This document shows positions 2,703 through 60,866 of a DNA stretch of 64,000 nt, in pieces. This DNA comes from Desulfomonilia bacterium. Lineage in GTDB: Bacteria; Desulfobacterota; Desulfomonilia; UBA1062. The translations under genes were made by a program, and so were the position numbers. The notes below the pieces were generated by a model. That model searched no databases and was not told the DNA's origin. It saw only the letters and a list, made by a program, of their open reading frames with translations. The stretch covers positions 64,001 to 128,000 of the forward strand of contig JBEKDT010000014.1 in the NCBI GenBank assembly GCA_050014195.1, read 5' to 3'. Each line of letters opens with the position of its first letter. The stretch's first letter is position 1.

Positions 2703-3212
2703 TCATGTGTGTATTGCTGTTTTTATAATCCTTGAGAAGATTGGGAGCAGGAGTGTCGCCAGTATCACACTGCCTCCGGCCTGGAGGAGGTTCGCAGGTA
2801 CCTCTGCCAATGCAGCCTTCTGGTCATACATGAAAACCTCGGTAACATAGTAACCAAGCACCATCCAAGCGGTTGAGACGATGAAGCACAGGATGATAAA
2901 AAGGGTTATCTTGGTTGTGTTGATCTTCAGATACTTTATGCTGAACCCCATGAGCGTTGCCTCAAGGCCCTTGATAAACAGTGTCCAGGGGGCCCACTGG
3001 TAGTACCCTCCGAAGATGTCTGCCAGTGCCGAACCGATGCCCCCGGCCATAAATCCGAGAGCCGGACCGAAAAAGATGCCGGAGAGAAGGACCATGCTGT
3101 CACCCAGGTTCATATATCCATTGGTCTGGGGAATAGGGACGCGGACGATCATGGTGGCCACAGCCACAAGGGCCATGAAGAGCGCCAGCAGGGCGAGTTC
3201 TTTTACGTTCAT
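2703..3212 (-). CDS. ECF transporter S component
   Basis: Hydrophobic 169 aa with IPQTNGYMNLGD, GIGSALAD and WAPWTLFIKG motifs. Confidence 0.85.
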   Translation of the reverse strand: MNVKELALLALFMALVAVATMIVRVPIPQTNGYMNLGDSMVLLSGIFFGPALGFMAGGIGSALADIFGGYYQWAPWTLFIKGLEATLMGFSIKYLKINTTKITLFIILCFIVSTAWMVLGYYVTEVFMYDQKAALAEVPANLLQAGGSVILATLLLPIFSRIIKTAIHT

Positions 3213-3246
3213 GGATCGCCTCCTTAATTTCTATAATAATTGATCA

Positions 3247-4644
3247 TCATGATTGCATATACACGAGTGCCCTTTTCAGCCGGGACAGAACCACGGATTT
3301 CCCCAGGGTGACAATAATCTCAAAGATGCCCGGGGATACGGTCTTACCGGTGAGTGCTACCCGCATAGGCTGAGCGATGGTCTTAAATTTGAGTTTGTAT
3401 GTGTCAAGTATGGTTTTTACCACCTCTTCGGTCTTGGCTTTGTCTGCAAGGTCCGTCTGCTCGAACTGTTCGACGAGTGCCTTAAATACAGGGGCAAGCT
3501 CATGGGTATAGAACTGTTTTTTGAGATCTTCGGCAGGCTCCACTTCATGGAAATAGAAGTTGCCGAAATCCAGCATATCTCTAAGAGTCTTGGTGCGCTC
3601 CCGGATATCAATGACCACGTTTTTGAGATAATCCCTGCCGGGAGGCGCATATCCGCTCTTGGTGGTGAATTCTTCGAGGAGAACGGCGAGTCTATCCGGG
3701 TCTCCGGTCTTGATGTAGTGGTGGTTGAGCCAGAGGAGCTTCTCCGGGTTGAATACGGCGGCCGCCCGTCCCACATCGTGGACATCGAAATACTCGATGA
3801 GCTCATGAAGGGTGAAGATCTCCTGGTCTCCATGCGACCATGAGAGTCTGACAAGGTAATTCACCAGGGCCTCCGGGAGGTATCCCATTTCCTGGTATGC
3901 CATGACGGAGGTGGCGCCGTGCCTCTTGGAAAGCTTGGTCTTGTCAGGCCCGAGGATCATGGGGACATGGGCGAAGAAAGGCAGCGCAAATCCCAGTGCT
4001 TCATAGATCTTCACCTGCCGGGGGGTGTTGTTCACATGGTCATCGCCCCTGATCACATGGGTCATGTTCATGGTGGCATCATCGATGACGACGGTGAGGT
4101 TGTAGGTGGGCATGTTGTCCGACCGAAGCAGGATGAGATCGTCCATCTCCGCATTGTCGACGCTGATCCTGCCCTTGATGAGGTCATCGAAAGAGGTGAC
4201 TCCCATATCGGGCATGAGGAAGCGGACAACCCTGCCCGGACCGGGACCAAGGCCTTTGCCCCTGCACGTGCCGTCATATTTCGGTTTTTTCCCTTCTGCC
4301 AGGGCCCGGCTGCGTTTCCTTTCCAGTTCATCCGGGGTGCACTCGCACCAGTAGGCCTTGCCTTCATCTAAGAGCTTTTGTAAGGAGGATTTGTAGATAT
4401 CGAGTCGCTGCGACTGGTAGAAGGGACCCTCATCCCAGTCGAGGCCGAGCCATTTCATGGATTCCAGGATCTGCCGGGTATTTTCATCGGTCGAGCGTTC
4501 GGCATCGGTGTCTTCTATCCTGAGTATGAACTTCCCGCCGGAATGCCTTGCATGGAGCCATGAGAACAGGGCTGTCCTGACGCCGCCGATATGGAGTTGA
4601 CCCGTAGGTGATGGAGCGAACCGCGTTCTTATCTTGTGGGACAT
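3247..4644 (-). CDS. gltX: glutamate--tRNA ligase
   Basis: RTRFAPSPTG, HIGG, LRIEDTD, KLSKR. Confidence 0.97.
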   Translation of the reverse strand: MSHKIRTRFAPSPTGQLHIGGVRTALFSWLHARHSGGKFILRIEDTDAERSTDENTRQILESMKWLGLDWDEGPFYQSQRLDIYKSSLQKLLDEGKAYWCECTPDELERKRSRALAEGKKPKYDGTCRGKGLGPGPGRVVRFLMPDMGVTSFDDLIKGRISVDNAEMDDLILLRSDNMPTYNLTVVIDDATMNMTHVIRGDDHVNNTPRQVKIYEALGFALPFFAHVPMILGPDKTKLSKRHGATSVMAYQEMGYLPEALVNYLVRLSWSHGDQEIFTLHELIEYFDVHDVGRAAAVFNPEKLLWLNHHYIKTGDPDRLAVLLEEFTTKSGYAPPGRDYLKNVVIDIRERTKTLRDMLDFGNFYFHEVEPAEDLKKQFYTHELAPVFKALVEQFEQTDLADKAKTEEVVKTILDTYKLKFKTIAQPMRVALTGKTVSPGIFEIIVTLGKSVVLSRLKRALVYMQS

Positions 4645-4645
4645 T

Positions 4646-6565
4646 TCAGCCTCGTACCTTTTTATAGATATAATTGAGCAGCCCGCCTTCTTTCAGGATC
4701 TCGCTTTCGCGCACGGAAAGATTCAGGGTGCAGTTCAATCGTTTGCCGGAATTGAGTGTGGATACTTCTATCGGTGAAATATTGTTAAGGGCGGCATGGA
4801 TGTTATTCACCGAGACCTTGCCACCCTGGTCGAGCTCTGAATATCCCTGTTCGTCTATCCGGATAGGCAGAATCCCGAAGTTGATAAGGTTTGATCTGTG
4901 GATCCTGGCAAATGACTTGGCGAATACGGCCTTCACGCCCAGGTACATGGGGGCAAGCGCTGCATGCTCCCGAGAAGAGCCCTGGCCGTAGTTCTCGCCT
5001 GAGAGTATACAGCCGCTCCCGGCAGTCTTTGCATGGTCGAAGAACTCCTTGTCGATGCTTAAGAATACATACCGCGAGATTGCCTCGATATTTGAGCGCA
5101 AGGGCAGGATCTTGGAGCCTGCCGGCATGATATCGTCGGTGGTGATGTTGTCTTTGAGCTTCAGGAGGACCGAAAGCGTGAGCGCATCCTCCATGGGACC
5201 CCTCTTCGGCAGGGGTCGGATGTTGGGCCCCCTGCGTATCTGCACGCCGGCGGGATTTTCTGCAGGTTTTATGATCATAGAGTCATCGATAAGGAATGAA
5301 TCCGGCAGTTTTATCTCGGGGTATGCACCCAACTCCCGCGGATCAGTGAAGCTCCCCTTCAGCGCACAGGCCGTGGCCGCTTCAGGCGATGCGAGGTAGA
5401 CTTCGGCATCAGCCGTACCGGAGCGGCCTTTGAAGTTGCGGTTGAACGTCCGTACCGATACAGCCCCCGTGGAGGGGGCCTGGCCCATGCCGATGCATGG
5501 GCCGCAGGCCGTCTCCAAGACCCTTGCACCGGCCGCGATGATGTCGGTAAGACAACCGTTTGCAGCGAGCATCTCTAGGACCTGCCGTGATCCGGGCGCA
5601 ATTGAAAGGCTCACATCCGGGTGTATCTTTTTGCCTTTGAGCACAGCAGCAACAGCCATGAGGTCTTTCAGCGATGAGTTCGTGCACGAGCCGATGAGCA
5701 CCTGATCGACCTTCCTGCCGGAAAGCTCCCTTATTGTCTTTATATTGTCGGGGCTATGCGGGCAGGCAGCAAGGGGTTCGAGTGTTGAAAGGTCGATCTC
5801 GATTGTTTCGTCGTAAGCTGCCCCTTCATCTGCAGAGAGTGGTATCCATGCCGCTTCGCGGCCCTGTGCCTTCAGGAATGCACGGGTAATCTCATCGCTG
5901 GGAAAGATGGATGTGGTTGCGCCCAGCTCCGCCCCCATGTTGGTGATGGTGGCACGCTCCGGGACGCTCAAGCCTTTCACGCCAGGGCCATAGTACTCAA
6001 AGATCCTGCCGACACCTCCCTTAACGGTGAGCCTGCGCAGGATCTCCAGGATGATGTCCTTGGCGCTCACCCAGGGCCGGAGGCCGGACTTCAGGAGCAC
6101 GCCTACAACCTTGGGCCCCGGGATATTGAAGGGCATGCCTGCCATCGCGGCTGCAACGTCCAAGCCGCCGGCTCCGATAGCCAGCATCCCGATGCCTCCT
6201 CCTGTGGGTGTATGGCTGTCGGAGCCGAGCAGGGTCTTGCCGGGGATTCCGAATCGTTCAAGGTGGACCTGATGGCAGATGCCGTTTCCCGGCCTGGAGA
6301 AGTATATTCCGTATTTGTTTGCAATGTCCTTTAGGAAGCGGTGGTCGTCGGCATTTTCAAACCCGGTCTGGAGGGTGTTATGGTCCACGTAGCTCACGGA
6401 GAGCTCGGCTTTAACACGGTCCAGCCCCATGGCCTCGAACTCCAGATAGGCCATGGTTCCGGTGGCATCCTGGGTCAGTGTCTGATCGATATGAAGGGCA
6501 TACTCTTCATCAGTTGCCGCCACGAGGTGGCTCTCGATGATCTTGGCGGTCAGGGTCCGGGCCAT
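4646..6565 (-). CDS. aconitate hydratase (short, about 640-aa type)
   Basis: QDATGT, GICHQV, GSDSHT, GSCTNS, CGPCIG, NRNF, GSSREHA. Confidence 0.9.
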   Translation of the reverse strand: MARTLTAKIIESHLVAATDEEYALHIDQTLTQDATGTMAYLEFEAMGLDRVKAELSVSYVDHNTLQTGFENADDHRFLKDIANKYGIYFSRPGNGICHQVHLERFGIPGKTLLGSDSHTPTGGGIGMLAIGAGGLDVAAAMAGMPFNIPGPKVVGVLLKSGLRPWVSAKDIILEILRRLTVKGGVGRIFEYYGPGVKGLSVPERATITNMGAELGATTSIFPSDEITRAFLKAQGREAAWIPLSADEGAAYDETIEIDLSTLEPLAACPHSPDNIKTIRELSGRKVDQVLIGSCTNSSLKDLMAVAAVLKGKKIHPDVSLSIAPGSRQVLEMLAANGCLTDIIAAGARVLETACGPCIGMGQAPSTGAVSVRTFNRNFKGRSGTADAEVYLASPEAATACALKGSFTDPRELGAYPEIKLPDSFLIDDSMIIKPAENPAGVQIRRGPNIRPLPKRGPMEDALTLSVLLKLKDNITTDDIMPAGSKILPLRSNIEAISRYVFLSIDKEFFDHAKTAGSGCILSGENYGQGSSREHAALAPMYLGVKAVFAKSFARIHRSNLINFGILPIRIDEQGYSELDQGGKVSVNNIHAALNNISPIEVSTLNSGKRLNCTLNLSVRESEILKEGGLLNYIYKKVRG

Positions 6566-29094: not shown

Positions 29095-29643
29095 TTACTC
29101 GTCTTGGAGGATAACCTTTGACAAGTCTGGCCTGGCCCGAGGGAGGGTGATTTGTATTCGAGTCCCGGCAGGTCCGCTTGCAGGGTCGGCGTTTGATTCG
29201 ATGGTCAAATTGCCAGAATGTAATTTCACGGCCCCATAGGCGAACGGCAGCCCCAGGCCTGTCCCCTCACCAACGGGTTTTGTGGTGAAAAAGGGGGTGA
29301 AAAGCTTGTCCATATTCTCTCTCGAAATACCCCTGCCGGTATCTTGAATTATAATGACGACCTGGTCAACGCCACCTTGAACGCTTACAGCCAGTTCGCC
29401 TCCGTCCGGCATGGCCTCTATGGCATTGGTCTGAAGGTTCACCAGTGCCTTGAAGACCCGTTCTTCATCAATCCAAACCGAAGGGTCTGAAATATCCGTT
29501 GTCATTGATATTCGGATGTTATCCGGCTTTGGTAGGCTCCGGATGCTCTCTTCAGTCAGGGCGACGATATCCGTCTCCCTGCGTTTCAACCCCTGCAGGG
29601 CGGATTTTATATTTTCTTCATAATCAATGATATTCCTATCCAT
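29095..29643 (-). CDS. stand-alone histidine-kinase-like ATPase (HATPase_c) domain protein
   Basis: N box NLQTNAIEA, G1 DTGRGI, F box LFTPFFTTK, G2 GTGLGL; no HisKA or sensor domain. Confidence 0.8.
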   Translation of the reverse strand: MDRNIIDYEENIKSALQGLKRRETDIVALTEESIRSLPKPDNIRISMTTDISDPSVWIDEERVFKALVNLQTNAIEAMPDGGELAVSVQGGVDQVVIIIQDTGRGISRENMDKLFTPFFTTKPVGEGTGLGLPFAYGAVKLHSGNLTIESNADPASGPAGTRIQITLPRARPDLSKVILQDE

Positions 29644-52855: not shown

Positions 52856-52951
52856 GGCATCACGTTTCAGTGCATAATTCTGCATACCTACAATTTTGCG
52901 GTTTTCCAGCTTGACTGGACTTCTAGAAATTTCTATCATTTGACCGTTACA

Positions 52952-53003
52952 AAGGGATGGAGTTCCCCTGACAAACGCCCGGGCCGGGCTGATAACTCCT
53001 ACC
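52952..53003 (+). ncRNA. fluoride (crcB-motif) riboswitch
   Basis: AGGGATGGAGTTCCCCT...AAACGCCC...GGGCTGATAACTCCTAC fits the GATGGAGT...GCTGATGACTCCTAC consensus; about 60 nt upstream of the ATG. Confidence 0.88.
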
Positions 53004-53344
53004 ACGCGGCGGTAGAGTTGAAGCTGTGCGTCCGCATCATGGCCCAGGAGGTGTTTGTCTCATGACTTTCCACAGCATATTATTTGAAAGAACTGAAGAT
53101 AGCACAAAAAAAGAATCGCTTGAAGCGCCCGCCTTTTTTGTTGATTTGAATCTTGATCAGGTTATCGACACCATCACGGCCGGCAGGAAGGAATATAATT
53201 TAAAGCCGTTTTTTTACACTTCCCTGTCCGATATCGACACGATCAAGTATCGTCATGAAATAATGCAGGATCTGGAAAATAAAACGGAAGTATGTACTTT
53301 ACGCAATAATTGCTCTTTCATCCCCAATGCCTCCATCTGGTGCC

Positions 53345-53494
53345 TTACTTACTTTGGCCCTTTGATGGTTTTTTCTTTTTCAATGATTCCTTGACTGCGT
53401 CCTGCCAATCGCCATCAATTTTAAGTAATTTAGGTTTTGGACCAGGGGCCGTAATTTTGGCTCTACGCCTCTTTGTATGACAGATATCACTCAT
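53345..53494 (-). CDS. 49-aa basic passenger protein (below ORF-track cutoff)
   Basis: AAGGGAG RBS; [49 protein letters not shown]. Confidence 0.55.
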
Positions 53495-53672
53495 GCCGTA
53501 TGTTCTCCCTTATGTAACTGCTGGCATAATTACTATTGACAGTTACGGCAAAGGTTATTAAGCAGAAGACAACCATGATGGCATTTCTTATGGATCGGAT
53601 GGAATTTCCTTGTATTTCAATATCAATGGTGATACAGTAACGACAGGTCAAATAAATGGGAGGTGATGATTT

Positions 53673-54086
53673 ATGAGTTTCGAGATTTTCTCTCGCAAAG
53701 CAACATATCGTGGAGTCCCGTCTGTAACGTTTACGAAGACAGGCCGAATGGCATTTAATAAGGCCGCAACTGCTATCTTTGAAAAGAATGCAGTGGAGAA
53801 CGTCCTCCTGCTGTGGGATAAAGACAAACGACTTATTGGGGTGCGGCCCATAACTAAGAAGGATAACCGGGCTTATTTTGTGAGCGCTGGGACTAGAAAA
53901 AACGGGTGTGGATTCACAGCAATGACTTTTGTTAAGTACATTGGACTTGATATTTCGAGTTCTAGGGCTTTTCCTACCCGTTGGGATGAGCTGGAAGAAA
54001 TGTTTTTGATTGAAGTGCCGGAAGAATATCTTAATAAGGATGGTGTCCCATCGAAGGGAAAAAAGAAACCAACTGAGGGAGCCTAA
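53673..54086 (+). CDS. hypothetical passenger protein (137 aa)
   Basis: GGAGGTG RBS; globular-looking sequence inside the IS; no family recognised with confidence. Confidence 0.75.
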   Translation: MSFEIFSRKATYRGVPSVTFTKTGRMAFNKAATAIFEKNAVENVLLLWDKDKRLIGVRPITKKDNRAYFVSAGTRKNGCGFTAMTFVKYIGLDISSSRAFPTRWDELEEMFLIEVPEEYLNKDGVPSKGKKKPTEGA

Positions 54087-54161
54087 AAAATGTCTGCTGT
54101 AAAGACAGAAACCCCCTGATGCTGTAACATCAGGGGGCACATCAAAGAAAGGAGGAACGAC

Positions 54162-54251
54162 ATGTGCTGTAGGGTTCATCGTTCCACCAAGAGGATTGTG
54201 GTTACAATCCGTTTAAAATGGATTGAAATCACAATTGTCTTTCCTCCATAG
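54162..54251 (+). CDS. 29-aa mini-ORF
   Basis: AAAGGAGG RBS 6 nt before ATG; MCCRVHRSTKRIVVTIRLKWIEITIVFPP; flanked by perfect 10-bp hairpins. Confidence 0.55.
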   Translation: MCCRVHRSTKRIVVTIRLKWIEITIVFPP

Positions 54252-54314
54252 GGCCTAACGGCTCTTTGGGGAAGCATGCCGGAGAGCACTGCGCTCTCCG
54301 GCCTTTAACTACAA

Positions 54315-54413
54315 GCGGGCGTGGCGGAATTGGAAGACGCGCTGGCCTTGGATGCCAGTGGGTGCCTTGCTTAAGGGATAACACCCGTGCGGGATCGAAG
54401 CCCGTCGCCCGCA
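54315..54413 (+). tRNA. atypical tRNA-like gene: Leu-type class II body with TGG (Pro) anticodon
   Basis: Acceptor GCGGGCG/CGCCCGC plus A73; D-arm GCG-GAATTGGAAGA-CGC; anticodon arm CTGGC-CTTGGAT-GCCAG; 30-nt variable arm; T-arm GCGGG-ATCGAAG-CCCGT; no encoded CCA. Confidence 0.8.
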
Positions 54414-54459
54414 TCTTTATATATAAAGATAGCATCGTTTTATCATTTTGTCAAAAATT

Positions 54460-55446
54460 TCATATAACCTTTAAAGATGTATCTTTTGGAGACTTATACA
54501 TCAACCGTTTTCCCTCAGCTGAATGTATGGCTCTGATTACACGATCACCATCATTCAATGTACGATTATTCCAAATAAAGTCAAATTGCCAGAGATAACG
54601 ATGAAGATGTTCATGGCTGACATTATGGTAGATTCCAACTATCCCACGTTTTACAACTGCGAAGGATGATTCGGCTGTATTGGTATGAACATCTCCACGA
54701 ACATATTCATGCGTGGAATGACATACTTTATCATGACCGCCCATAAAGAAGGAACCAATTCCTCTGTATGCTTTATAATCATCTGTGATAATACGTGATC
54801 TAACATCTACTTCTTGTTTTATGGCTGAATGTAATGTTTCTCCTGTAACGTCTGCTACGACACGACGTCTAATATGACCATTTCTTTCGACGGCTGCAAA
54901 TACAGGAGTTTTGCTTGTCCCGCGACCTCGTTTATGTATCTTCCCATCTCCATAACGAGGCTTACCACCTATATAGGTTTCATCACATTCGACTATTCCA
55001 TTAAGTTTTTCTGTATTAGAATCTGGTGCCATTGCATAACGGATTCTATTCATCAGAAACAATGCCGACTTGTAACTAATCTGACAATGTCGCTTAATTT
55101 CCAATGCTGCTACACCTTTCTTTGAGGTTGAGGCTCTCCAAAATGCATAACACCAATGGCGAAGATCAATCCGCGATTCTTGATATACTGTTCCAATTCT
55201 GACAGTATATTGATTGTTACAATCCCGACAACGCCACAAAAAACGCTTATTCCGCATCCCAGTTTTAGAATCACTCATTTTGTATACTTGTGTACTTCCA
55301 CAATGAACACAGGTCGGCTTATCTCCCCATCTCTGCTTTTCAAAGAACTCAACGGCTGCTAGTTCATCGCAACAAGCTAATGGCATATCTTCAATAATGT
55401 CAGATTTTGCTAAATTCGAATGGTCGATTTTTTTATTTTTCTTCAT
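54460..55446 (-). CDS. IS1595-family DDE transposase
   Basis: Zn ribbon CVHCGS...CRDC, SKKGVAALEI HTH region, VECDETYIGG, ITDD, HTNTAES, YHNVS...HLHRYL; frame intact. Confidence 0.95.
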   Translation of the reverse strand: MKKNKKIDHSNLAKSDIIEDMPLACCDELAAVEFFEKQRWGDKPTCVHCGSTQVYKMSDSKTGMRNKRFLWRCRDCNNQYTVRIGTVYQESRIDLRHWCYAFWRASTSKKGVAALEIKRHCQISYKSALFLMNRIRYAMAPDSNTEKLNGIVECDETYIGGKPRYGDGKIHKRGRGTSKTPVFAAVERNGHIRRRVVADVTGETLHSAIKQEVDVRSRIITDDYKAYRGIGSFFMGGHDKVCHSTHEYVRGDVHTNTAESSFAVVKRGIVGIYHNVSHEHLHRYLWQFDFIWNNRTLNDGDRVIRAIHSAEGKRLMYKSPKDTSLKVI

Positions 55447-55454
55447 ATATTAAT

Positions 55455-55482
55455 ATTATACTTAACGCAAAGCATTTGTCAA
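55455..55482 (-). promoter_or_regulatory. sigma70 promoter of the transposase
   Basis: TTGACA-N16-TATAAT; ATG only 8 nt past the -10 box, no RBS. Confidence 0.75.
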
Positions 55483-56845
55483 GGGGCAAATGATATTTTT
55501 TAGCGTTTGCGTAAAGTACATACTTCCGAAATAAAATTCTCTTTGAGAATATAAAAACATTTGCACAAGAAATGCGCGCAATGCGACAGCATCTTGCCCT
55601 GGTGGAAGAGCTTCACTACAAATACCACAAGGAAGGATGGTTTTTAGAAACAATAGATATTTATTGTGAAGCCGTTCATCGCCTGGTACACGAGTTAACC
55701 CTTGCAGATTTAAAATCGCGCGGCTTTTTAGCCTTCCGGGAGTATATAACGAACTATGCCAGATCCGACCATTTTATGTCCCTTTTAGCTGAAACGAAAA
55801 AGCTTAAAGCCGATTTATCCGCCGTAAAGTATTGCCTGCTCATAAAGGATAACAGCATCAAGGTTTGCACATATGAATCCGGAATTGATTACAGTGCAGA
55901 TGTGGAGCAGACATTCGAGAGATTCAAACAGGGAGCGGTGAAAGATTACCGGGTCAAATTTTCCACCGGGCCTGAAATGAACCATGTTGAAGAGAGAATA
56001 CTGGATCAGGTAGCCCGATTGTATCCCAATATATTTTTAAGTCTCGATGATTATTACGCGAGGAACGGCAATTTTCCAGATGAAACGATAGCCGTTTTCG
56101 ACCGGGAGATACAATTTTACATCGCCTATCTGGAGCATATCGCACAATTCAAGCGAGTGGGATTAAAATTTTGTTATCCGAAAATTTCTACCCAGTACAA
56201 GGAAGTGTATGATTATGAAGGATTTGATTTAGCACTGGCCAATAAACTCATGAGTGAGAACTCATCCATTGTCTGCAATGATTTCTACCTGAAAGACAAG
56301 GAACGCATATTTGTAATATCCGGTCCGAATCAGGGAGGGAAAACAACCTTCGCCCGCACCTTCGGACAGTTGCATTATCTGGCTACCATAGGTTGTCTCG
56401 TCCCAGGCAGAGAAGCACAACTCTTTTTGTTCGACAGGCTCTTTACCCATTTTGAAAAGGAGGAACACATCGAGAATCTCCGTGGTAAACTGCAGGATGA
56501 CCTCGTCAGAATCCACAAGATTCTCAATCAGGCCACATCAAACAGTATTATCATAATGAATGAAATTTTCACTTCCACAACACTAAAAGACGCTATTCTC
56601 CTGGGTAAGAGGATAATGGAAAAAATAATACAATTGGATTTGCTGTGCGTTTGCGTGACATTTATAGATGAACTGGCTTCTTTAAGTGAAAAAACCGTAA
56701 GCATGGTCAGCACGGTAGTTCCCGAAAATCCGACATTGCGAACATATAAAATAGTAAGAAGGCCTGCCGACGGACTTTCATACGCGATATCAATCGCCGA
56801 AAAGTATCGACTTACCTACGATTGTTTGAAGGAGCGGATAAAATC

Positions 56846-58417
56846 ATGAAGGCTTTCCTCATGTATAAGGATCGTGATTTTGATCTCCAGCAGGAGTTGC
56901 CATGGAATGAACAAGCATTGACACAAGACCTGGAATTAAACACACTGTTTTCTGCCATGGCCCTCGGCAACACATTTTTGTTTGAAGTGGCAAAGAACGC
57001 TGTTTTGACCGGTTTCCATAATGATCCGGACACAATACGATATCGCCAAGATATTCTAAAAGATTGTCTGAAGAACTCTTCCATTGTGAGGGATATCTAC
57101 GACATTGCTGTGGAAGCAATCGAAAGCAAGAGAAAACATTGGTATGGCATATTCAGACATGATTCTCCCACCTCGATACTGCATACTTCATTAGAAAAAA
57201 TGCAGACATTTGTGGGCCTGCTTAAAAAAATAAAGAATATTGCTGATGAACACGCCGATAAATTCGAGTCGGAAGGCTTTAGGGCGTTCTTCGCGATGTT
57301 CGAAAAAGAACTTGGCGATGAATATTTTGCAGGCGTTCAACATCATCTAAGGGCGCTCAAATTCCGCAAAGGAGTTTTGATCAGTGCTGAATTGGGAACA
57401 GGCAACAAAGGTACCAATTACATACTTCATGAAACACACGAAAAAAAGCAGAGTTGGATGGAGTGGATCTTTGCCGGAATACAGAGTTGGATGGAGCAGA
57501 TCTTTGCCAAAAAAACGACCGGTTACACCTTTTATATCAGTGAACGTGATGAAAGCGGCTTCAGGGCCTTGGCAGGATTAAGAGACAGGGGGATCAACCA
57601 CGCAGCCAATGCTCTCGCCCAATCTGGTGATCATGTTCTTAATTTCTTTATCATGTTGCGGACCGAATTGGCTTTTTACGTTGGTTGTCTGAATTTACAC
57701 GGGCACCTTGCCAAAAAAGGGGAGCCCATATCTTTCCCTCTGCCCGCGGCTCCCGGCGAACGCAGACATTCTTTTCATGGATTATACGATGTCTGTCTGG
57801 CTTTAAACCTGGAACAAAGGATTGTGGGCAACGATGTGAATGCCGACAATAAAAACCTCGTGATAATCACAGGCGCCAACCAGGGCGGCAAATCAACTTT
57901 TTTGCGAAGCATAGGTTTATCCCAATTGATGATGCAATGCGGCATGTTTGTGCCGGCTGAGTCTTTCTGTTCCAATGTCTGTGACGGTATTTTCACACAC
58001 TACAAAAGGAAAGAAGACGTTACCATGAATAGCGGGAAACTTGATGAAGAACTCGGTAGAATGAGCGCTATCGTAGACAACATAACGGCAAATCCCATGA
58101 TACTGTTAAATGAATCATTTGCCGCGACAAACGAAAGAGAAGGCTCGGAGATTTCAAGGCAGATAATGTGTGCATTATTGGAAAGGCACATCAAGATTTT
58201 CTTCGTTACTCATGTATATACATTTGCGCATGGTTTTTATGACAAAAAAATGGAAAACGCCATTTTCTTGCGGGCTGAAAGGCAAAGCGACGGAGGACGA
58301 ACTTTTAAAGTAATTGAAGGCGAACCATTGCAAACCAGCTATGGCGAAGATTTGTATAACGGGATATTCGAAACCGACGCAAGCACTAAGGTGCGGGAGG
58401 CGCTGGACAGTGAATGA
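56846..58417 (+). CDS. second MutS-related ATPase (domain V type)
   Basis: ATGA overlap with upstream gene; [40 protein letters not shown]. Confidence 0.9.
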
Positions 58418-60465: not shown

Positions 60466-60674
60466 AGTGCCTCCTTTTTAGCGTAAGCTGGAAAGCATAA
60501 GCGACGGCTCTACGGTAAAATGTGAAATATCATTCATGTAACGAGGCCGCCTTTGAGCGTGCCCTTGCATGCATTGAACGAATGAGGACTGTGTTCTTGA
60601 AGGGAATTGTATAATGCCAGAAGCCGGATGACTTTTAAGGGCAAGCGCCATACATTCTCCTTCAGATTTCTCTG

Positions 60675-60721
60675 ACAGGAGTCATCAGCCTACCCGGCGG
60701 TTATGGGGGACTCCATCCCTG
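60675..60721 (-). ncRNA. fluoride (crcB-motif) riboswitch
   Basis: Minus strand AGGGATGGAGTCCCCCATAACCGCCGGGTAGGCTGATGACTCCTGT, upstream of HIT and eno. Confidence 0.9.
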
Positions 60722-60866
60722 ATCTTCGTTAAATGTGTACTGTATTAAGGGTAAAGCTGTCAATCACGAGCTGGAACATTCCATTAACCTCTCCAGCCGG
60801 AAATATCATTACCCTTGAGCACGTTTTATACTCTCGCCTTACAGGTTTCTTCATTCATCAGTACAC

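Follow-up and report, generated by a model that had tools for sequence, protein, structure and literature searches.

Why should a bacterial transposon carry a transfer RNA (tRNA) with the body of a leucine tRNA and the anticodon of a proline tRNA? The question is raised by a 64,000-nt stretch of the genome of a Desulfomonilia bacterium (assembly GCA_050014195.1, contig JBEKDT010000014.1, positions 64,001 to 128,000 of the forward strand), hereafter the window, to which coordinates refer unless another contig or locus is named. An earlier note on this DNA had described a cassette consisting of a perfect hairpin, a strong ribosome-binding site, a 29-codon open reading frame (ORF), a second hairpin and a tRNA with the anticodon UGG, and had taken it for part of a mobile element. 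All of these parts are present; the tRNA is real, scoring 47.3 bits with the Rfam model RF00005 (gathering score 29), and the cassette does lie in a mobile element, an intact transposon of the IS1595 family. What had been overlooked was the class II, leucine-type body of the tRNA, which is not a tRNA-Pro, the 27-nt insertion in its variable arm and the enclosing insertion sequence (IS). We are highly confident that the cassette is a passenger module of this transposon and that its tRNA is a member of an IS-borne family. The answer that we favour as to its purpose lies in a few codons of the transposase gene.

The transposon and its leucine-type tRNA

The element, its boundaries and its main genes are as follows.

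53026..53284, plus strand: 5' part of a MutS-like gene split by the IS; the rest lies at 55537-56849
53277..53284: left copy of the target-site duplication, AAATAAAA, 8 bp
53285..55528: complete IS1595-family transposon, 2,244 bp, with passenger genes
53285..53306, plus strand: left terminal inverted repeat, CGGAAGTATGTACTTTACGCAA, 22 nt, 100% complementary to the right copy
53345..53494, minus strand: p49, a small lysine-rich protein and core gene of the IS subgroup
53673..54086, plus strand: p137, a passenger protein with a predicted MraZ/AbrB-like double-barrel fold and a lysine-rich tail
54315..54413, plus strand: class II Leu-type tRNA, anticodon UGG, with A73, G1-C72, A37, the T-loop AUCGAAG and no encoded CCA
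54460..55446, minus strand: IS1595-family transposase, 328 aa, intact
55455..55482, minus strand: transposase promoter-like site (TTGACA, 16 nt, TATAAT; 12/12 matches), just inside the right inverted repeat
55507..55528, minus strand: right terminal inverted repeat, 22 nt, perfect
55529..55536: right copy of the target-site duplication, AAATAAAA, 8 bp

The element thus reads, from left to right, inverted repeat, p49, p137, leader, tRNA, transposase gene on the opposite strand and inverted repeat, with the tRNA and transposase genes convergent and 46 nt between the 3' end of the former and the stop codon of the latter. Its inverted repeats agree at 22/22 nt and AAATAAAA stands on both sides, an 8-bp target duplication being the figure that ISfinder gives for the IS1595 family. 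In silico excision of the IS with one copy of the duplication yields a 523-codon MutS-like frame without an internal stop. The transposase matches PF12762 (3e-36; 125 bits, cut-off 27), PF12760 (3e-11) and NF033547 (1.2e-51; 175.6 bits, cut-off 75), and is a DDE enzyme of the ISXO2/IS1595 type with an N-terminal zinc ribbon. Homologues of p49 occur in 22 related loci (tblastn), mostly directly downstream of the transposase gene. The G+C content of the element is 0.41 against 0.55 and 0.46 in its flanks, and the 4.2-Mb genome holds a single copy.

The same element, or its close kin, is found elsewhere. The 22-mer inverted repeat recurs identically at locus L108, where it bounds a 2,278-bp IS, and is present at L140; many metagenome assemblies from peat and wetland contain the element, and in peat contigs its right inverted repeat is joined to several different flanks. 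Four peat sequencing runs gave no exact empty-site joint, and the short inverted-repeat joints in them were too small to interpret. When the DNA of 60 relatives was searched with the element, nothing was found beyond the 5' halves of canonical tRNA-Leu genes, a single p137 homologue and weak fragments of transposases; collections of plasmids and phages gave no match.

The tRNA has the anticodon loop CUUGGAU and a variable region of 30 nt, and was not called by ARAGORN. (At a different site, 29124-29215 on the plus strand, the program gives a 'tRNA-???' with a two-base anticodon; there is no Rfam tRNA at the gathering score there, and the call is probably false.) Its long variable arm, A73, A14 and D arm are all of the leucine type, and the host tRNA-Leu(UAG) shares 88% identity with it over the D arm and anticodon stem. 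A family model, R1, gives it 88.5 bits and gives the five host tRNA-Leu genes 76-82 bits, with every other host tRNA at or below 45.5 bits. A leucine anticodon (NAG or YAA) is absent, and by its anticodon the molecule is therefore no tRNA-Leu isoacceptor. Of the features of a tRNA-Pro it has the NGG anticodon and A73; it lacks the class I body, C1-G72 and G37, all of which are found in each of the three host tRNA-Pro genes. The tRNA set of the host is otherwise normal, with tRNA-Pro UGG, GGG and CGG and the five tRNA-Leu genes.

Which amino acid such a hybrid would receive depends on what the synthetases recognise. As described in PMC9976931, the identity of tRNA-Leu resides in A73 and A14, with the anticodon arm dispensable for charging, and the Escherichia coli prolyl-tRNA synthetase (ProRS) uses G35, G36 and A73 and needs G72. 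Since the leucyl-tRNA synthetase (LeuRS) bypasses the anticodon arm in this way, whereas E. coli ProRS uses G72, leucine is the likelier charge of the window tRNA.

A pattern scan for a Leu-type D arm with a UGG loop returned 105 stretches in one-genome-per-species contigs and seven in viral contigs, among which there were 35 full UGG cloverleaves, two of them dubious (L040, L091). An IS1595 transposase is encoded at the same locus in 22/35 cases, sharing 31-76% identity with that of the window, and these 22 loci are spread over Acidobacteriota, Planctomycetota, Verrucomicrobiota, Chloroflexota, Gemmatimonadota, Actinomycetota, Pseudomonadota and Krumholzibacteriota. At five loci (L108, L109, L124, L132 and L134) the tRNA lies between inverted repeats that come with target duplications. 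When 32 such tRNAs are aligned, 96.5% of the cells pair and double changes occur in 23/25 pairs, which none of 500 shuffles reached; G-U pairs mark the tRNA strand as the functional one. Judged from this alignment, the family is under structural selection. G1-C72 is kept in 28/32 and A37 in 22/32 members; three have C1-G72, and all three of these have G37 as well.

Two kinds of pattern match were excluded: tRNA-Leu genes in which an intron-like insert follows the anticodon-loop CUU (Phenylobacterium, Stappia, Eremiobacterota and others) and half-tRNA repeats in Oscillospiraceae. Metagenome-assembled genomes of Oscillospiraceae, Ruminococcus and other Clostridia (L035, L047, L055, L064, L079, L083, L090) have such tRNA-Leu 5' halves in arrays, with as many as five copies in a few kb; each copy ends in TTTGGGCAG, is followed by unrelated sequence and is not a full tRNA.

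A sample free of anticodon bias was drawn by fetching 160 loci through transposase similarity alone and then searching them with the model, a class II tRNA of at least 50 bits at most 2 kb from the transposase being counted as IS-linked. Such a tRNA was found at 24/160 loci: 16 with UGG, three with AGG and five with other anticodons (UGC, GUC, GAG on a Ser-type body, GGA and UUA). Anticodons that read proline codons thus account for 19/24, and a leucine anticodon on a Leu-type body does not occur among the IS-linked tRNAs of this sample. In the transposase tree the window falls into a well-supported clade of 26 rows, 20 of which have such a tRNA, and carriage is clustered on the tree. The place of the tRNA varies: it may follow the transposase stop in convergent orientation, precede the transposase gene on the same strand or lie past p49.

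Some of these tRNAs are odd in further ways. Locus L139, whose transposase is 70% identical to that of the window, has two Ser-type class II tRNAs (G73) at 2906-3315, with anticodons UGG and GAG, the latter with C33. C33 in place of the near-universal U33 is seen in several IS-linked tRNAs (L141, L229, L238, L218).

Could the window tRNA be a functionless, decaying pseudogene that began as a captured tRNA-Leu(UAG) and underwent A35G by chance, with its variable arm enlarged by an insertion? UAG and UGG differ by one base, ARAGORN rejected the gene, position 54 of its T loop is A, and the gene ends without CCA. The CCA tail is, however, unencoded in 6/52 host tRNA genes as well, and the host has three genes of the PolyA_pol family. 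Decay is also at odds with the compensatory covariation in the family, with the retention of the anticodon across transposases that are only 31-76% identical, with the intactness of the element and with the matching codons in the transposase gene that are described below. We regard this explanation as extremely improbable.

Signature codons in the transposase gene

The transposase genes that travel with UGG tRNAs use the codon read by this anticodon, CCA, to an unusual extent. CCA makes up 0.29 of the proline codons in UGG-linked transposases and 0.15 in tRNA-less ones at equal G+C content of third codon positions (p = 9e-7); the share of A-ending codons in seven other four-fold boxes is unchanged in six, with a slight difference for GGA (p = 0.015). 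The surplus is confined to particular sites. The window transposase has exactly three CCA codons, and each stands at one of them:

55381..55383, minus strand: signature CCA at P22, alignment column 284, in the N-terminal motif E-[LI]-P-x-A-C; 16/17 prolines of UGG-linked transposases are encoded by CCA
55024..55026, minus strand: signature CCA at P141 in the linker, columns 487 and 491, motif E-P-[LMV]; CCA for 6/8 and 16/17 UGG-linked prolines
54487..54489, minus strand: signature CCA at P320, column 824, in the C-terminal Y-K-S-P of the window; CCA for 24/24 UGG-linked prolines

Across the family the C-terminal motif is Y-[RK]-[ED]-P-V. In the unbiased subset CCA is found at this site in 9/15 linked transposases and in 1/74 tRNA-less ones (Fisher 7e-8), and the number of CCA codons outside the three regions is equal, 1.27 in linked and 1.19 in tRNA-less genes. 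At least two signature CCA codons are present in 31/35 linked and 4/74 tRNA-less transposases. Homologues of p49 have no site-specific CCA.

The codons also follow the anticodon where it changes. The AGG elements L190 and L240, sisters in the tree, use CCT in the linker and at the C-terminal signature site and at no other place in the gene. In the UUA element L260 the codon at the C-terminal signature position is TAA, after which come V-H-S and another TAA; its transposase has no internal stop. C-terminal sites without CCA often have a leucine codon instead (L218, L239, L169, L065), and leucine is the commonest residue at this site in tRNA-less relatives (21/74).

We therefore consider a functional link between the element tRNA and the signature codons likely. 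Our best overall explanation, which we hold to be rather probable from comparison of sequences, is that the IS carries a passenger module whose tRNA decodes the signature codons of its transposase, probably as leucine. Host LeuRS would charge the element tRNA, since this enzyme ignores the anticodon. The charged tRNA would then compete with host tRNA-Pro, or with a release factor, at the signature codons, and a leucine-containing isoform of the transposase would be produced beside the proline form. The ratio of the isoforms, set by the competition of the element tRNA with host decoding, would amount to translational control of transposition, and a recoding switch private to the element would tie the properties of the transposase to the expression of its own tRNA. 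For leucine as the residue inserted at the signature codons we would give even odds. The more general proposition that this IS1595 subgroup has a private code switch, in which a non-proline tRNA (leucine or other) matches the signature codons (UGG-CCA, AGG-CCU, UUA-UAA) and two transposase isoforms arise, strikes us as falling a little short of that.

One competitor dispenses with recoding altogether: ProRS would charge the tRNA with proline, and the tRNA would be a decoder for CCA or CCU codons that are rare and stand at gate positions of the transposase. Control through rare TTA codons by bldA offers an analogue, and CCA is indeed rare in the host, at 0.12 of proline codons. The window tRNA holds the ProRS determinants G35, G36 and A73 (PMC9976931), which makes proline or dual charging possible, and three of the 32 family members have C1-G72 and G37 as well. 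G1-C72 in 28/32 members, A37 in 22/32 and the Leu-type D arm speak otherwise; the same type of body bears the non-proline anticodons UUA, GGA, GUC and UGC, L139 has UGG on a Ser-type body, and in the UUA element the signature site is occupied by a stop codon. Codon usage at conserved prolines points the same way. In four conserved proline columns CCA or CCT is used at 9/97 positions of linked and 62/233 of tRNA-less transposases (p = 4e-4), and conserved alanine, glycine, valine and threonine columns have no comparable depletion. Such avoidance is expected if the element tRNA inserts a residue other than proline; a proline donor predicts no depletion, or enrichment. We consider proline charging without recoding unlikely.

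Several observations weigh against the decoding of signature codons as leucine. As regards the tRNA, A54 in the T loop and the length of the variable arm are unusual, and the host has a tRNA-Pro(UGG) that would compete. As regards the codons, the signature columns were picked after inspection of the data, and the linked and tRNA-less groups are phylogenetically non-independent: in nine independent pairs, 5.3 differences are in the same direction and 0.1 in the opposite one, with a median p of 0.06. The C-terminal CCA is absent in 9/33 linked transposases with a residue at this column, and the GUC, UGC and GGA elements have no matching codon at the C-terminal site. The window transposase itself keeps CCT at the conserved P163 and P181. 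Residues at the signature sites of tRNA-less relatives are mixed (leucine, proline, serine, threonine and others), which leaves leucine unproven, and no complementarity to the anticodon loop extending around the signature codons was evident by eye. Many tRNA-less IS1595 genes (L158, L167, L195, L223, L235, L246 and others) have a lone CCT at the C-terminal site, as would suit a proline decoder; this codon may be a relic or reflect dependence on a tRNA encoded elsewhere. Finally, proline at strongly conserved leucine columns was found in none of 38 linked and none of 74 tRNA-less transposases. This last test is too narrow to reject self-recoding because the signature sites are variable positions.

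Leader, mini-ORF and p137

Between p137 and the tRNA lies the leader that contained most of the parts first described, and an antisense promoter-like site follows the tRNA.

54087-54314, plus strand: structured leader, 228 nt, from p137 to the tRNA
54112-54121 / 54128-54137: hairpin 1, arms CCCCCTGATG/CATCAGGGGG, 6-nt loop, perfect 10 bp
54148-55, plus strand: ribosome-binding site, AAAGGAGG, with GGAGG 6 nt ahead of the ATG at 54162
54162-54251, plus strand: mini-ORF, 29 codons, peptide MCCRVHRSTKRIVVTIRLKWIEITIVFPP, strong ribosome-binding site, ending CCT CCA TAG
54278-54302, plus strand: hairpin 2, arms GCCGGAGAGC/GCTCTCCGGC, perfect 10 bp, 12 nt 5' of the tRNA
54426-54454, minus strand: antisense promoter-like site (TTGACA, 17 nt, TATCTT, with TG; 10/12 matches), pointing into the tRNA

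The leader folds far better than expected, with -106.3 kcal/mol against -61.2 +/- 4.7 in 200 shuffles (z = -9.55; 0 shuffles as good), and an analogous leader at locus L109 has z = -8.0. A search of Rfam with E up to 10 gave nothing credible for the leader, the top match being the RAGATH-1 hammerhead with 20 bits against a gathering score of 56. As no plus-strand promoter-like site was found within the leader, p137, leader and tRNA probably form one transcript. Hairpin 1 scores as an intrinsic terminator on the minus strand, with a stem of 12 pairs followed by TTCTGTCTTT (54138-54111), and has no U tract on the plus strand. The minus-strand promoter-like site and this terminator (54454 to 54111) could thus bracket the tRNA and the mini-ORF and give rise to an antisense RNA of about 300 nt.

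The earlier note had placed the weight on the mini-ORF, whose only prolines are its final two codons, CCT and CCA, directly before TAG: mini-ORF and tRNA were to form a coupled module, the Pro-Pro-stop acting as a ribosome-stalling sensor that controls the tRNA or as a small toxin that is balanced by it. There is something to be said for this. The ribosome-binding site is strong, ideally spaced and paired with downstream sequence, hence sequestered, in the predicted fold of the leader; the terminal CCU and CCA would be read by the window tRNA, CCA being both the last sense codon and the codon of its anticodon; and a small ORF led by a Shine-Dalgarno sequence lies between the p137 gene and the tRNA in each of the three closest p137-family loci (the window, L109 and L297). 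At L109 a hairpin and a 50-codon ORF precede the UGG tRNA, and at L297, from a genome of the host's genus, a short ORF precedes a class I tRNA with the anticodon CGA. These three peptides are unrelated, however, and only that of the window ends in Pro-Pro; the L297 ORF looks like a leftover gene start because its ribosome-binding site and ATGAG closely resemble the start of the window p137. Neither the leader DNA nor the mini-ORF peptide has a match among about 270 related loci. A Shine-Dalgarno-led upstream ORF with a Pro-Pro-stop end exists in 1/42 IS-linked tRNA loci, that of the window, and no such ORF of at least 12 codons lies within 260 nt upstream in 20/42. Hairpin 2 is followed by CTTTAACTACAA without a clear U tract, so that no attenuator is evident. 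As the class of leader peptides and stalling sensors requires a conserved small ORF with regulatory codons as well as alternative structures, we have set it aside for this cassette, and a stalling sensor or toxin in the mini-ORF appears to us very improbable.

What survives of the proposed module is the tie between the tRNA and proline codons in cis. The co-variation of codons with the anticodon, which had been suggested as a check, did come out positive; it involves the signature codons of the transposase, and the comparative data accordingly make the transposase gene the partner of the tRNA rather than the mini-ORF. If the tRNA decodes the signature codons as we favour, hairpins and mini-ORF would be features of the leader that are specific to this lineage, with hairpin 1 serving also as a minus-strand terminator.

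The remaining passenger, p137, has 43 homologue clusters, in which every given name is 'hypothetical', and no relatives in viral contigs. Its AlphaFold2 model has a mean predicted local distance difference test score (pLDDT) of 78.7; the top fold match is MraZ 1n0e (Z 6.3, 89 residues aligned, root-mean-square deviation 3.6), followed by B3 domains. With p137, p49 and the mini-ORF as queries, nothing above threshold was found in Pfam (no family match for p49), NCBIfam, PHROGs, PADLOC or the sequences of the PDB. Of eight loci examined, four have a p137-family gene followed by an identity-mismatched tRNA, whose anticodon is UGG at two of them, CGA at one and, on a Ser-type body, UAU at the fourth; p137 may regulate or bind mismatched tRNAs.

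This raises the alternative that the tRNA is selfish or toxic cargo, causing proline-to-leucine mistranslation throughout the proteome and held in check by p137 or by antisense RNA, so that the whole would be an addiction or stress module to which the transposase codons have merely adapted. AbrB/MraZ-like folds are typical of antitoxins, and a fold of this kind is predicted for p137, whose gene stands directly 5' of the mismatched tRNA at the four loci just mentioned; a C2H2 zinc finger that weakly matches an RNA-binding type forms the C-terminus of some p137 homologues, and the antisense promoter-like site and terminator bracket the tRNA. Natural tRNAs of comparable irregularity, the allo-tRNAs, lie near toxin-antitoxin systems, and 2/6 tested variants were lethal to E. 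coli (Mukai et al., PMC5389517). Neither p137 nor p49 matches any known toxin or antitoxin family, PADLOC included. Most tRNA-bearing elements, moreover, have no p137, for which L109 was the sole match among the roughly 270 loci, and toxicity alone would explain the avoidance of CCA, not the site-specific retention of cognate codons or their co-variation with the anticodon. Toxic cargo seems to us improbable.

Two further arrangements of p137 relatives or irregular tRNAs were noticed. At L300 a 103-nt Ser-type tRNA (2572-2674) with the anticodon UAU and a 33-nt variable arm lies 3' of two tandem p137-family genes; it has 55.5 bits in Rfam and was not called by ARAGORN. Beyond the window, host contig C20 has at 3200-5635 a 74-nt class I tRNA with the anticodon CGA and, once more, C33, flanked by a 281-aa ORF and an IS1-like-looking transposase with zinc ribbon and helix-turn-helix, with a small protein rich in lysine and glycine upstream; a CGA tRNA of the same type is found at L297 (1120-2400), in the same genus, 3' of a p137 homologue and near a transposase similar to that of C20. 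In the neighbourhood of the transposon, the window also contains the following features.

52944-53008, plus strand: fluoride riboswitch, 44.5 bits, upstream of the split MutS-like gene
56822-58417: second MutS-like paralogue
60669-60729, minus strand: second fluoride riboswitch, 45.2 bits

Comparison with known systems

Natural tRNAs with an anticodon foreign to their body are rare, and most have no known purpose, as with allo-tRNAs, the nematode nev-tRNAs and tRNA-ProX. The present case offers a candidate target, since the irregular tRNA shares a small element with a gene in which fixed codons track the anticodon. If our explanation is right, this would be the first case of a transposon with its own system for recoding a sense codon, a new mode of transposition control comparable to programmed frameshifting, and a natural source of compact orthogonal decoding parts. 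Such genes are currently overlooked by tRNA finders and IS annotation, as the failure of ARAGORN on the window tRNA illustrates. In the literature we found no report of a tRNA borne by IS1595 or conserved as cargo of an IS subgroup, and none of tRNA-matching codons in a transposase.

A precedent in logic comes from phages with recoded stop codons, whose own suppressor tRNAs decode special in-frame codons in phage genes. There, too, the tRNA of a mobile element serves the element's own genes, and L260 with its UUA tRNA and TAA codon is the closest parallel; the elements described here differ in being transposons of about 2-4 kb that mostly use a sense codon, CCA or CCU, at two to three sites of one gene. 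As a transposon the element resembles the passenger-carrying members of the IS1595 family, or transporter IS, among the ISfinder subgroups, with which it shares the zinc ribbon and DDE transposase, short inverted repeats, the 8-bp duplication and internal passengers.

One close comparison among irregular tRNAs is with the allo-tRNAs of soil Acidobacteria (Mukai et al. 2017, PMC5389517). They are bacterial, combine an anticodon with a foreign identity, have long variable arms, come from soil and peat sequences and lie beside transposon-related genes and toxin-antitoxin systems; their authors suggested that they act as missense or nonsense suppressors or as non-translational RNAs (PMC5389517). 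The window tRNA shares with them the mismatch of anticodon and identity and the association with a mobile element. They differ in an acceptor/T-stem geometry of 8/4 or 9/3 and in their serine identity (PMC5389517), whereas the tRNA described here is 7/5, of the Leu type and has A73, covariation supporting all 12 pairs. The main text of PMC5389517 has no UGG anticodon, no link to IS1595 and no matching codons in a neighbouring gene; 'Transpos' appears in it twice, with reference to a pseudogene overlapping a transposon-related ORF. Bacterial tRNAs that join a Leu-type body to a proline anticodon did not turn up in the literature that we searched, the supplements of PMC5389517, which lay outside our scope, being a place where similar cases may appear.

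The nematode nev-tRNAs provide a parallel for the chemistry (Hamashima et al. 2012, PMC3333845). These are class II tRNAs derived from tRNA-Leu with non-leucine anticodons, are charged with leucine only and decode the mismatched codon as leucine in vitro (PMC3333845). In contrast to the present family they are eukaryotic and chromosomal, bear glycine or isoleucine anticodons, and are described in that paper without a mobile element or known dedicated target codons (PMC3333845). The tRNA-ProX of Streptomyces and Kitasatospora, with its synthetase ProRSx, shows that bacteria possess natural tRNAs for deliberate mistranslation involving proline, and these tRNAs, too, have an unusual anticodon loop without U33 (A33; review PMC11415595), as do the members of our family with C33. 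The direction is the opposite one, with alanine, asparagine or threonine anticodons on a proline body, and a dedicated synthetase is co-encoded (PMC11415595); the IS of the window encodes none. What sets the present element apart from every system compared here is its union of a transposon-borne tRNA for a sense codon with matching codons in the transposase gene.

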